From assembly GCA_964392925.1 (NCBI GenBank), contig CAYMRP010000004.1:71184-135183 (forward strand): a stretch of DNA of 64,000 bases, in the 5' to 3' direction. The notes beneath the pieces are model-generated. The model was not told the DNA's origin and did not search any database. It saw only the letters and a list, made by a program, of their open reading frames with translations. Made by a program: the position numbers and the translations under genes. Source of the DNA: an uncultured Gammaproteobacteria bacterium (lineage in GTDB: Bacteria > Patescibacteriota > Microgenomatia > Daviesbacterales > UBA10151). Shown here in pieces: positions 45,503 to 48,630 of the stretch; the stretch's first letter is position 1; each line of letters opens with the position of its first letter.

Positions 45503-45516
45503 CCTATAGTAGAGTA

Positions 45517-45544
45517 TTGCAAAAAATAAAATTTATGATAGTAT
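45517..45544 (+). promoter_or_regulatory. Promoter of the T-box leader (TTGCAA-16-TAGTAT with upstream TG)
   Basis: TTGCAA lies at 45517-45522, TG at 45536-45537 and TAGTAT at 45539-45544. Confidence 0.5.
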
Positions 45545-45551
45545 ATTCATA

Positions 45552-45796
45552 CAACTAAATATCAAAAGCGTTTGTACTTGTAGTCGCGCACAAGGAGCTG
45601 GTTCTCAAAATAGAACACGGAGACGAAACCGTAAAAGACAGTAACATGTGTCGGTAACGGAGCATGTCAGGAATAAGTAATTCTTTGACATCTCGCGAAA
45701 GCGGGATTTTTTTGAATTAGTACAAGGTGGCACCGCCAATTTAAAGGCCCTTGTGATTTTCTTAACTAAAGTTAGGGAATTCACAAGGGCTTTTTT
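45552..45796 (+). promoter_or_regulatory. T-box riboswitch leader (transcription attenuation type)
   Basis: The T-box sequence AAGGUGGCACCGCC lies at 45724-45737 and matches 12 of 14 positions of AGGGUGGNACCGCG. The canonical antiterminator has a 7-nt UGGCACC bulge. It competes with a 10-bp terminator stem plus U6. Upstream hairpins include a GNRA-capped stem at 45692-45705. Confidence 0.85.
45747..45796 (+). terminator. T-box terminator hairpin plus U6
   Basis: GCCCUUGUGA (45747-45756) pairs perfectly with UCACAAGGGC (45781-45790). An inner helix spans 45758-45779, and Ts run from 45791 to 45796. Confidence 0.85.
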
Positions 45797-45822
45797 AATG
45801 CCCTAAAAAAGGAAAAAAATAT

Positions 45823-46413
45823 ATGAGATCAATATATAAGGAAAAGCTAAGTAATCCAATATCGGAACACATTCCTGGGAAAATTATTATGGGCGGAGAA
45901 ATTGACATCCTCTCTTTAGGGGTGAGGCAGGGGTATGCAAGTTATATTAGTGAGGAGCTAGGTAAGCATCAAGATAAAACTAAACTAAGAAGTTCCATAG
46001 AATTAGAAAGGGATATGCGAGAAGCCAGAGCGATTCTTTGTCTTCACCCCGAGACTGAGCAATTATTAGCATTCGCCAAGCTCGAATATTTTGGAATAAA
46101 TGATGCAAAACAAATTATATATGAGTTTGGTTCTTGGATTGGTAAGAATGGCTATGGAAGAGATGTCTTAGAGGCTGGAAGAGATTTAGCCGCCCAGCAA
46201 TTTCCGTATGCCAGACTGATAGCAATTGTCAGACCCAGCAACCTAAAAGCGCAAAGAATAATTACTGAGAGTGGGGGAATAAAAGTGGGTTATCTTGATC
46301 CTCTCGTGAAACATATTTACGACATAACCAGAAGACAACAACCAACAAGTGTAATCAAGCTAGGTCAGGGTGGAATTTGGATTAATCAACAAAATCAAGG
46401 TCATATTCTATAA
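45823..46413 (+). CDS. GNAT-fold N-acetyltransferase-like protein
   Basis: GSWIGKNGYGRDVLEAG is in the position of the GNAT motif A (Q/R-x-x-G-x-G/A), and NLKAQRIITESGG resembles motif B. This is a weak family-level call. Confidence 0.45.
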   Translation: MRSIYKEKLSNPISEHIPGKIIMGGEIDILSLGVRQGYASYISEELGKHQDKTKLRSSIELERDMREARAILCLHPETEQLLAFAKLEYFGINDAKQIIYEFGSWIGKNGYGRDVLEAGRDLAAQQFPYARLIAIVRPSNLKAQRIITESGGIKVGYLDPLVKHIYDITRRQQPTSVIKLGQGGIWINQQNQGHIL

Positions 46414-46424
46414 GGAAAAAAGTT

Positions 46425-47150
46425 ATGAAAAAATCTACAGCAATAAAATACAAGACAATAGGTGTTTTAGGAGGCATGGGCCCCTCTGCCTCAGCATACT
46501 TTTATCAGCTTTTATTGAAAACTCTACAGCAAAAGCATAATGCTGTGCAGGATTATGACTATCCTCAAATAATCATTAATTCATTATCTCTATCGGATTC
46601 CAGCGAGAATGGAATGGAAAGTTCGACTAGAATTATTAATCAGTTAACCAAAGGGATTAATGCATTGGAAAAGGCGGGTGCTAATTTTATTACAATTCCT
46701 TGCAATTCAGTTCATAATTCAATTAAGGTACTGAGGAAGAAAACAAAGTTACCAATAATCAGTATTATTGAGAAAGTAAGCTTGGAGGTTATTAAGGATA
46801 AATCTAAGAAAATTCTTATTCTCTCCTCAAAAACAACTAATAATTACGGTCTTTATGATAGTTTGAAAAATGAGGGAATAATTATAATAAAACCTAACAG
46901 TATTCTTGAGGAGCAAGTCACTAGGTTAATACTTGCTGTAATGGGAAATAAGAATATTCAGAACGTAAAAAAACCTGTTATCAAAACAATTAACAGCATG
47001 TTTAACAGTGGTGATATTGATTCAGTACTTCTAGGTTGTACCGAGTTACCATTAGCAATAACTAAGGGCGATGTAGATTGTAAGATTTATGATTCATTAA
47101 GAATATTATCGGAGGCTTCTGTAAACTACTCACTAATCTCGGCGAAATAA
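46425..47150 (+). CDS. Aspartate/glutamate racemase-family enzyme (aspartate-racemase-like)
   Basis: Contains IGVLGGMGPSAS and LLGCTELP. The two catalytic Cys regions are PCNSVH and GCTE. Confidence 0.75.
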   Translation: MKKSTAIKYKTIGVLGGMGPSASAYFYQLLLKTLQQKHNAVQDYDYPQIIINSLSLSDSSENGMESSTRIINQLTKGINALEKAGANFITIPCNSVHNSIKVLRKKTKLPIISIIEKVSLEVIKDKSKKILILSSKTTNNYGLYDSLKNEGIIIIKPNSILEEQVTRLILAVMGNKNIQNVKKPVIKTINSMFNSGDIDSVLLGCTELPLAITKGDVDCKIYDSLRILSEASVNYSLISAK

Positions 47151-47256
47151 TTATTGTTTTAATTTTTACACAGTTTAAGCTATAATAGGCACTATAAACG
47201 AAGACTTCATTAAAAACACATTATCTTTAAGAGGCAAGGTTAAGGGTCAAAAATGG

Positions 47257-48159: not shown

Positions 48160-48561
48160 ATGTTAAATATAACTGAGCTTTTAACTAAAATAATAAATTG
48201 GGGAAATTCTGAAGAAAGTATTCAAGCCATTGGTTTAGTTGGATCTCACGCCAGAAAAGCAGCAACAGATGATTCAGATGTTGATCTAATGATCATTTGT
48301 AAAAATCCCGAAAATTATATTTCTGACGAAGATTGGATTCACAATTTCGGTCAAGTAAAAGAAATAAAAAATGAAATATGGAGTCAGTTAAAAACCAAAA
48401 GGGTTTTCTACACGAACGGCTTAGAAGTTGAATTTAATTTCGACAAAGCTTCTTGGGCAAATCATGAAGATTCAGGAACTAAAAGAGTTATTACAGATGG
48501 AATAAAGATTCTAGTAGATAAAGAAAAAATTCTGGAAAATTTACAAAAGTTTTTTAAGTAG
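48160..48561 (+). CDS. Short nucleotidyltransferase resembling the N-terminal domain of ANT(6) (AadK-type)
   Basis: Contains GLVGSHARKAATDDSDVDLMI (the G-S...D-x-D NTase core). YISDEDWIHNFG parallels FISNDDWLNQFG of AadK as recalled. It is 133 aa versus about 280 aa for full ANT(6). Confidence 0.55.
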   Translation: MLNITELLTKIINWGNSEESIQAIGLVGSHARKAATDDSDVDLMIICKNPENYISDEDWIHNFGQVKEIKNEIWSQLKTKRVFYTNGLEVEFNFDKASWANHEDSGTKRVITDGIKILVDKEKILENLQKFFK

Positions 48562-48630
48562 CGCGTACGGGAGTCGAACCCGTTCTGCTAGATTGAGAAT
48601 CTAACGTCCTAACCGGTAGACGAACGCGCC
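48559..48630 (-). tRNA. tRNA-Glu (anticodon CUC)
   Basis: The manual cloverleaf has acceptor GGCGCGU/ACGCGCU (G1-U72 wobble), D-arm GUCU/GGAC and anticodon stem UUAGA/UCUAG with loop UUCUCAA. It also has a 4-nt variable loop, T-arm ACGGG-UUCGACU-CCCGU and discriminator A. No CCA is encoded. Confidence 0.85.

Follow-up and report, generated by a model that had tools for sequence, protein, structure and literature searches.

A putative tRNA-Arg T-box leader with a short Stem I upstream of GNAT and racemase genes in a Patescibacteria contig

T-boxes are the textbook example of RNAs that sense not only which transfer RNA (tRNA) is present but also whether it is charged. A candidate of this kind lies on the plus strand of the 64,000-nucleotide (nt) stretch of contig CAYMRP010000004.1 analysed here (the window), where a sigma-70-type promoter (45517-45544) is followed by a leader ending in an antiterminator/terminator switch and then by genes for a 196-amino-acid (aa) GNAT-fold protein (45823-46413) and a racemase of the Asp/Glu family (46425-47150). 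The leader (45551-45796) is probably that of a transcription-attenuating tRNA-Arg T-box riboswitch controlling at least these two genes. Judged by its sequence, it is an ordinary member of a large leader group of the candidate phyla radiation (CPR) without a tRNA-elbow platform. The coordinates of the switch, the promoter and the candidate triplets were checked by direct sequence reading.

The antiterminator/terminator switch and its promoter

The T-box sequence AAGGTGGCACCGCC (= AAGGUGGCACCGCC) occupies 45724-45737 and agrees with the RF00230 consensus aGGGUGGUACCGCG at 11 fixed positions and the variable N. It forms part of an antiterminator at 45722-45754, supported by sequence and fold, in which helix A1 (45722-45727, ACAAGG, with 45749-45754, CCUUGU) and helix A2 (45735-45737, GCC, with 45746-45748, GGC) flank the 7-nt bulge UGGCACC (45728-45734), the UGGC of which is the proposed partner of the tRNA 3' sequence GCCA. 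When 45718-45757 was folded alone with ViennaRNA, exactly this shape was returned at -10 kcal/mol. The 3' strand of the antiterminator is overlapped by the 5' strand of an intrinsic terminator (45743-45796), the predicted stems of which join 45743-45756 with 45781-45794 and, further in, 45758-45766 with 45771-45779; its core, 45747-45756 paired with 45781-45790, is followed by U6 (45791-45796). The full hairpin (45743-45794) folds at -31.3 kcal/mol with a z-score of -8.8, and none of 200 shuffled sequences folded as well. Having a strand in common, the two structures are mutually exclusive (-10 versus -31.3 kcal/mol). The motif GGTGGNACCRC, allowing at most one mismatch, occurs three times in the window against 1.5 expected and is not significant as a short motif alone; the case therefore rests on geometry and conservation.

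The promoter consists of TTGCAA (-35, 45517-45522), a 16-nt spacer and the extended -10 element TAGTAT (45539-45544) with its TG at 45536-45537, and the arrangement TTGCAA-N16/17-TGnTAnnAT recurs in front of five related leaders (L001, L003, L004, L011 and L233). From these elements, transcription would likely start near 45551. An AGGA ribosome-binding site (RBS) lies near 45811, outside the switch helix. A first-pass annotation of this stretch had already reported the T-box 14-mer, A1, the bulge and A2, the overlapping terminator with its U6 and the promoter, all of which were recovered at the positions it gave. Its reading of them as a plus-strand T-box switch ahead of the GNAT and racemase genes is upheld by the geometry and by conservation in relatives. 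A further block, CCTATAGTWRGGKTATTGCAA, is found at 45503-45522, just 5' of and overlapping the -35 element, and is common to the same five leaders; it may serve as an operator or a UP-like element alongside the riboswitch.

Homologous leaders and the upstream modules

At least 200 homologous leaders were recovered by two pattern scans, nearly all of them in Patescibacteria (CPR) metagenome-assembled genomes (MAGs) and metagenomes. The first scan covered one genome per species with a T-box/A1 pattern (at least 117 loci), and the second covered metagenomes with an anchor taken from another part of the leader, CGGAGRCGAAACCGTAAAAG (at least 119 loci). Among the matches listed, the named loci of the first scan belonged to Daviesbacteria, Woesebacteria, Levyibacteriota, Gottesmanbacteria, Roizmanbacteria, Shapirobacteria, Saccharibacteria and Paceibacterota, together with a few chance or non-CPR matches. 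Many leader-bearing MAG records (L007, L010-L013 and others) are titled 'uncultured Gammaproteobacteria' or 'uncultured Pseudomonadales', titles suspected of being placeholder misassignments because of the gene content and the leaders of those MAGs.

Read from 5' to 3', the family layout starts with GC-GUU-GA, a short variable-loop hairpin, GA-GC and a hairpin with a CAAAAU loop. It continues with ACGG-AGRCGAAA-CCGU-AAAAG, the loop of which pairs with the tail that follows, and with an extra hairpin (H4) carrying an internal UG/AG, and it ends with a second extra hairpin (H5) with a purine run, a GC-rich hairpin followed by U5-7, the antiterminator and the terminator. Since the first scan had fixed the antiterminator bases, the antiterminator/terminator alternative was tested on other data. 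Among the matches listed, an antiterminator with a UGGNANN bulge was present at 88 of the 106 usable loci reached from the unrelated anchor, with UGGNA invariant across those 88, and a terminator of at least 8 base pairs (bp) from GGCCCTT with a U-run was present in 103 of 121 pattern matches, the 35 different sequences of its extensions still being paired. In the independently anchored set, helix A2 covaries (GCC/GGC, GUCUU/AAGAC, GCGAG/CUCGC, ACGG/CCGU and others) and variants of A1 still pair (GUGAGG/CCUCAC, GAAAGG/CCUUUC). Both alternative structures are conserved in relatives; the first-pass annotation had named a lack of such conservation as a refutation of its reading.

The 5' domain was examined in a MAFFT alignment of 17 sequences, in which the proposed structure leaves 85.5% of cells paired (68% when shuffled) and 20 of 26 pairs show changes on both sides, a result attained by none of 500 shuffles; sliding the partners by one to three columns lowered pairing to 19-40%. 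MAFFT with RNAalifold on 37 full leaders was too gappy, recovering only H4 and the pattern-fixed antiterminator. The minimum free energy (MFE) fold of the entire leader was rejected, as it imposes long-range pairing across separate hairpins that is unsupported by the comparative data. What had at first been described as a series of short hairpins upstream of the switch proves instead to be a set of conserved covarying modules, including a kink-turn (K-turn)-like base, a specifier hairpin and a IIA/B pseudoknot.

These modules occupy 45567-45713 of the window, all on the plus strand. The K-turn-like base with Stem I (45567-45599) was recognised from family consensus words and helix covariation: its C-stem pairs A45567-G-C45569 with G45597-C-U45599, its bulged strand GUUUGUA (45570-45576) stands opposite G45595-A45596, and its 5-bp Stem I helix (45577-45581 with 45590-45594) covaries across the family (CUUGU/ACAAG, CUUCC/GGAAG, CUGGA/UCCAG, GUCUA/UAGAC and others). 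The family consensus, GC-GUU-GA and GA-GC around the hairpin, consists of the same words as the gCgaUGA…GAGc of RF00230. The helix carries the specifier loop AGUCGCGC (45582-45589, read as AGU-CGC-G-C), with the proposed specifier CGC at 45585-45587 followed by the purine G45588. The hairpin in the Stem II position, GUUCU CAAAAU AGAAC (45601-45616), is short and without GAA/AGUA S-turn words; all five of its pairs show both-side changes in the 17-sequence alignment, and its loop is conserved as CAAAAU or UAAAU.

The Stem IIA/B pseudoknot (45617-45642), supported by covariation, comprises Stem IIA (45617-45620 with 45629-45632), an F-box-like CCGUAA (45629-45634) where RF00230 has CGg…cCGUUA, and Stem IIB, which joins A45623-C45624 to G45641-U45642. 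In the same alignment the 45623-45642 pair is AU in eight sequences, GC in seven, CG in one and GU in one, with none unpaired, and the other IIB column is CG in 14 and UA in two, with one unpaired cell; longer forms of IIB occur in relatives (GUUG/CAAC, GUAA/UUAC, GCUU/AAGC). A three-way junction formed by the invariant GAGCUG and the tail CAGU was also considered and rejected, the tail covarying with the IIA loop and not with GAGCUG.

H4 (45644-45667) has a lower stem (45644-45648 with 45663-45667), an internal UG/AG and an upper stem (45651-45653 with 45658-45660) capped by a GNRA tetraloop, which is GUAA in the window (45654-45657), GAAA in L004, GCAA in L011 or else replaced by a longer insert. 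Its lower three pairs show compensatory changes in 7, 11 and 20 sequences (RNAalifold, 37 leaders), and six of its eight pairs show double changes in the 17-sequence alignment. H5 (GUCAGGAAU AAGUA AUUC-U-UUGAC, 45666-45689), taken from an MFE fold, shares G45666-U45667 with H4; the AAGAAUAAG-like purine run on its 5' side is conserved in the family, and homologous hairpins in relatives read GUCAUG…CAUGAC and CUCAAUGAG…CUUUGAG. Stem III, AUCUCGC GAAA GCGGGAU (45690-45707), was matched by the terminator scan and leads into U7 (45707-45713); in relatives it is a GC-rich, covarying hairpin, always followed by U5-7 in the long-form leaders. By its sequence, Stem III with its U7 looks like an intrinsic terminator or pause element placed 5' of the antiterminator, and such a U-run is, to our knowledge, not a feature of canonical T-boxes. 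A palindromic, GTCATCCCGCACTAGATGCGGGATCCAG-like insert occurs in some leaders, located either within the loop of the terminator or in the segment separating Stem III from the T-box (L003 580-610, L004 2275-2365; also L007, L011, L022 and L025), and looks like a miniature repeat element landing in tolerant leader loops.

Specifier codon, tRNA match and relation to known T-boxes

Cargo families were checked and tabulated against the Stem I loops, and some leaders were checked by hand; placement of Stem I by a hairpin heuristic erred in many loci, and some assignments were corrected by eye. The loop triplet was found to change with the cargo for eight amino acids (Trp, Pro, Asp, Ser, Val, Ile, Cys and Arg). 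UGG loops precede TrpRS (a cluster of 42 proteins) and trpE/G/D/B; CCU or CCC loops precede ProRS and an ornithine cyclodeaminase operon; GAC, UCC, GUC and AUC loops precede AspRS, SerRS, ValRS and IleRS, respectively; UGC loops, in leaders with a UGGA bulge, precede cysteine synthase-like and cystathionine enzymes; and CGC loops precede ArgH, ArgG, ArgRS, carbamoyltransferases, ArgE/DapE and CarAB-like genes. Among the matches listed, the triplet always precedes a purine in all loop classes. CGC is the only triplet common to the arginine-gene loop classes AGUCGCGC, GUCGCGA, CCGCAG and UCGCAA, and on this comparison of sequences the window specifier is read as CGC (Arg), the leader being most likely a reader of tRNA-Arg. 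Homologous leaders precede an argH-argG-racemase-GNAT operon (L003), GNAT genes (L001, L004, L151) and argH-argG (L011, L015, L198, L211, L220, L233). According to a review, T-box specifier codons favour a 3' C, with which CGC is consistent.

The variable position of the bulge follows the discriminator base of the tRNA in a similar manner. Among the matches listed, it is A (UGGA) in all three UGC leaders (Cys, U73), U (UGGU) wherever the cargo or the specifier is of the Pro, Val or Ile type (A73), and C or U in leaders of the Arg, Asp and Trp types, the single exception being the Trp-type L111 with UGGA. Both distinct tRNA-Arg(GCG) genes recovered (L062 and L233) carry G73, the one in L233 being on the same contig as an Arg-type leader, and their anticodon, GCG, is exactly complementary to CGC. 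The G73 of tRNA-Arg(GCG) in related contigs therefore fits the UGGC of the window, and the earlier prediction of a G73 tRNA is borne out to that extent. G73 had also been assumed for tRNA-Glu, which does not hold for the tRNA-Glu(CUC) of the window, where position 73 is A.

RF00230 gave no match in the whole window at its gathering score of 93 bits, and none at E ≤ 10 on 501 nt. That threshold was reached by none of the 16 CPR-type leader loci searched and by the Clostridia leader L074 and by L112; judged from these searches, the model misses this whole lineage-specific leader class. The first-pass annotation had treated the lack of an RF00230 hit as a refutation. The hit is indeed lacking, but given that the model misses the whole class, its absence is not a valid refutation here. 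Those features of a functional T-box that sequence and fold can show are present, namely the UGGN antiterminator, a strand-sharing terminator, a purine-flanked specifier and a bulge position matched to the discriminator. What is absent, as had been noted from the start, is the extended Stem I of canonical leaders, with its specifier internal loop, its AG bulge and its distal loop; only a 5-bp hairpin stands between the K-turn words, and nothing like the RF00230 words AGAGA…GgUUGGUGaaA was found in CPR leaders. With its Stem II domain and a short Stem I that has no platform, the leader resembles the class II (short-Stem-I) T-boxes, from which it departs in that its switch helix is an intrinsic terminator with U6 and not an RBS sequestrator.

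With the canonical RF00230 T-boxes (B. subtilis tyrS, glyQS) the window leader shares the T-box itself, the A1/7-nt UGGN bulge/A2 arrangement, the exclusive terminator, K-turn-like words at the base of Stem I, a proposed specifier followed by a purine, the IIA/B pseudoknot with F-box-like CCGUAA and a Stem III before the antiterminator; across the family, it also shares a cargo of aminoacyl-tRNA synthetase (aaRS) and amino-acid metabolism genes. It differs from them in its 5-bp Stem I with the codon in the terminal loop, the lack of an elbow platform, the short Stem II without S-turn words, the additional H4 and H5 and the U-run of Stem III. The 'ultrashort' Stem I T-boxes of actinobacterial ileS (Mycobacterium, Nocardia; Sherwood et al. 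2015, cited after PMC7583486) likewise have no elbow platform and possess a Stem II domain with IIA/B pseudoknot and the same discriminator core. The M. tuberculosis leader, which we take to read GAUCCGG-CCAUCA-CCGGGGAGC, is close to the CPR Trp-type GAUCCGG-…UGGAA-CCGGGGAGC. The present leaders differ from the actinobacterial ones in their intrinsic terminator, in serving at least eight amino acids, in a much shorter Stem II and in the addition of H4, H5 and the Stem III U-run; the actinobacterial F-box is CCGUCA (CCGUAA in the window), and control in the actinobacterial leaders is translational, via RBS sequestration (PMC7583486).

Minimal leaders were also encountered (L010, L036, L055, L102), in which Stem I lies about 47-50 nt 5' of the T-box and Stem II, the pseudoknot, H4, H5 and Stem III are missing. 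Consisting of Stem I and the antiterminator/terminator only, they are comparable to the minimal T-boxes of the glyQS type, although glyQS retains a long Stem I with platform and the minimal CPR leaders do not; the leader in the window is of the long form. The short-Stem-I model of TBDB was applied only to Actinobacteria and to truncated class I hits (PMC7778990), and nothing was found in the literature tying T-box riboswitches to Patescibacteria, CPR or Saccharibacteria, which is not proof of absence.

Several points weigh against a tRNA-Arg T-box in the window. On a 201-nt search RF00230 scored 13.9 bits (E = 0.35) over 45562-45755, far from its cut-off of 93. The distal platform of Stem I is absent, and a 2020 review holds that transcriptional T-boxes generally need the elbow-binding platform, which is dispensable in translational ones (PMC7583486). 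The K-turn words of the window, GC-GUUUGUA…GA-GC, contain two extra U on the bulged strand relative to the family, and for this reason its K-turn fold is treated as putative. Stem III with its U7 could end transcription before the T-box is made. The tRNA-Arg gene of the source genome does not lie within the 64-kb window, and many Arg-type relatives have UGGU, so that pairing with G73 would often be a wobble or the tRNA would differ. Counted from the 3' side of the loop, the codon shifts by one nucleotide from one loop class to another, and the reading frame is therefore supported by the correlation with cargo and not by structure; and since the window's own cargo is without a proven arginine link, the codon-cargo match rests on the homologous leaders.

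The one-nucleotide shift in register is also what gives some room to another frame of the same loop, all three of GCG (Ala), UCG (Ser) and GUC (Val) being contained in AGUCGCGC. However, neither GCG nor GUC occurs in the CCGCAG and UCGCAA loops found ahead of ArgH, ArgG and ArgRS, CCGCAG lacks UCG as well, and SerRS and ValRS sit behind UCC and GUC loops; no AlaRS was recognised behind such loops, among which unannotated cargo clusters remain. As tRNA-Ala is expected to carry A73, it would not pair with C45731, and a different frame is altogether very unlikely. The first-pass annotation had guessed at an Asp or Asn specifier elsewhere in the leader, at GAC-A (45637-45640), at AAC-G (45656-45659) or at a second GAC-A; the first two triplets stand where it placed them, and the last begins one base further on, at 45687-45690. 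A tRNA-Asp or tRNA-Asn T-box would suit the cargo, inasmuch as the closest solved relatives of the racemase are aspartate racemases and the ArgG of the L003 operon consumes aspartate, and these tRNAs usually carry G73. The triplets themselves speak against it: AAC-G covers the last two bases of the H4 tetraloop, which varies to GAAA or GCAA, and the first two of the 3' strand of the upper stem; the GAC at 45637-45639 lies in a non-conserved tail and is UAU in L004; and that at 45687-45689 is base-paired in the covarying H5 helix. Moreover, AspRS leaders bear GAC in the Stem I loop, where the window bears CGC, and loops identical to that of the window precede argH-argG, which leaves the guess the least credible of the readings weighed here.

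The leader might also be no tRNA sensor at all, and merely combine a constitutive terminator with a chance or decayed T-box-like motif, as the missing RF00230 match at gathering score and the lack of 11-mer enrichment in the window would allow. The conservation of the composite element in at least 200 loci with compensatory changes, the correspondence of codon and cargo over eight amino acids and the discriminator-matched bulges make this extremely unlikely. More weight, while still being rather unlikely, is given to an attenuator with two checkpoints, in which Stem III and U7 (45690-45713) form a first terminator regulated by tRNA bound at the decoding module or by some other factor that acts on H4/H5, and the T-box terminator forms the second. 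In its favour, Stem III with its U5-7 is kept throughout the long-form leaders and is scored as an intrinsic terminator, RF00230 has no counterpart of the conserved H4 and H5, and relatives that are intact up to the Stem III U-run and without the T-box bulge stand directly before a tRNA-Trp gene. Yet Stem III was found to have no competing alternative pairing, the four minimal members dispense with Stem II, H4, H5 and Stem III, and a hairpin-dependent pause is a simpler account of the same features.

Regulated genes, tRNA-linked relatives and significance

The product of the first regulated gene matches Pfam Acetyltransf_3 at 22.3 bits, below the cut-off; its AF2 model (pLDDT 75.7) returned generic GNAT proteins only in Foldseek, and a sequence search of the PDB gave no match. 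An exact-sequence lookup of the protein returned no contig match, and homologues were used instead. The family is small, with 13 cluster representatives in the protein database, the contigs of which bear the same leader: its members stand behind CGC leaders in L004, in L151 and in L001, a relative of 98% identity that comes from a wastewater metagenome, and L003 encodes one in its argH-argG-racemase-GNAT operon.

The second regulated gene encodes an amino-acid racemase of the two-Cys type (PF01177, 95 bits; TIGR00035, 131.7 bits), with 2zsk and 1jfl, both aspartate racemases, as its closest PDB entries. Racemases are recurrent cargo of the leader family and are split by specifier. Those of the Arg type, found in three gene contexts (window/L001, L003 and L019), are 55-57% identical to each other, and the window enzyme shares 96% identity with its L001 counterpart and 28-34% with the racemases of Trp-type leaders. 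A Trp-type subfamily (L045, L063, L127, L169, L171, L174, L189, L194, L199, L209), often encoded immediately before TrpRS, shows 37-47% identity among its own members and about 30% to the Arg-type enzymes. This sequence pattern suggests that the racemases may be matched in substrate to the specifier and induced on starvation; an alternative role for the enzyme would be the supply of L-aspartate to ArgG. The first-pass annotation had regarded a cargo other than an aaRS as unusual, an impression not sustained by the family, in which the same leader type precedes argH-argG and racemases recur.

Its description of the downstream genes was otherwise accurate (a weak GNAT match, Asp_Glu_race, APH_6_hur and NTase), the racemase gene being followed by an APH(6)-like gene (APH_6_hur) and then by a nucleotidyltransferase (NTase) gene. 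A perfect TATAAT is present at 47182-47187, in the 106-nt gap between the racemase and APH(6)-like genes, and the downstream kinase and NTase genes may possibly be under their own promoter, which renders the membership of the APH(6)-like gene and the truncated NTase gene in the regulated unit uncertain. The NTase open reading frame (ORF; 133 aa, in the 48160-48630 region) ends where a minus-strand tRNA-Glu(CUC) gene (48558-48630) begins. Its counterpart in L001 encodes 303 aa with an added AAA_33 kinase domain, and on this ground the window copy appears to have been truncated by rearrangement.

Some Trp-type (UGG) leaders stand directly before a tRNA-Trp(CCA) gene and not an ORF (L018 3001-3074, L099 446-518, L111 3113-3185, L115 2015-2086 and L044 305-376). 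In L099 and L115 a 354-aa ORF call without family match follows the tRNA-Trp gene, overlapping it in L099, and is itself followed by TrpRS; L099 has two tRNA-Trp genes, one with A73 beside the UGGU T-box and one with G73 elsewhere. 'Decoding-only' derivatives were observed as well, which keep everything intact from Stem I (UGG) through Stem II, IIA/B, H4 and H5 to the Stem III U-run and lack the T-box bulge. In one group of them (L128, L133, L142, L165, L176, L197, L239) the tRNA-Trp gene begins about 8 nt after the U-run, and in another (L156, L162, L173, L180, L231) it follows a second terminator-like hairpin. Such derivatives may be sensors of tRNA level rather than of charging.

For the tRNA-Arg T-box favoured here, the inferred course of events, which covers binding of the tRNA, readthrough and folding of the K-turn as well as what H4, H5 and the U-run after Stem III may do, is as follows. 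RNA polymerase would start at the TTGCAA/TAGTAT promoter, and the nascent RNA would fold into the K-turn-like base and 5-bp Stem I, the loop of which would present CGC (45585-45587) and the purine beside it. The short Stem II and the IIA/B pseudoknot would complete a decoding module like that of the short-Stem-I ileS T-boxes of Actinobacteria, and the GCG anticodon of tRNA-Arg would pair with CGC. If the tRNA is uncharged, its 3' GCCA (G73) would pair with UGGC in the 7-nt bulge and stabilise the antiterminator, which is weak (-10 kcal/mol), against a terminator that is strong (-31 kcal/mol), permitting readthrough into the genes; if the tRNA is charged or absent, the terminator would form. 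A pause, the preferred reading of the Stem III U-run, may buy time for tRNA to bind without an elbow platform.

A broader proposal, to which somewhat less than even confidence is attached, is that these leaders represent an undescribed T-box subclass found across the Patescibacteria, in which transcription is controlled without an elbow platform, a lack made up for by H4, H5 and a Stem III whose U-run gives a pause or a first terminator. Its regulon would include specifier-matched racemases, possibly for D-amino-acid salvage on starvation, and, in relatives, tRNA-Trp genes with derivatives retaining the decoding half only. The current view is that transcriptional control needs a long Stem I platform gripping the tRNA elbow fast enough to keep ahead of the polymerase (PMC7583486). 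A large natural set of platform-less, terminator-type T-boxes would be a direct test of that kinetic argument, with the extra hairpins and the hairpin-plus-U-run pause as possible substitutes for the platform. Given that the standard Rfam model misses these leaders, the amino-acid regulons of candidate phyla would be under-annotated, and the specifier codon may be used for assigning cargo of unknown function, as in the present case, where it would tie a GNAT-fold protein and a racemase subfamily to arginine.

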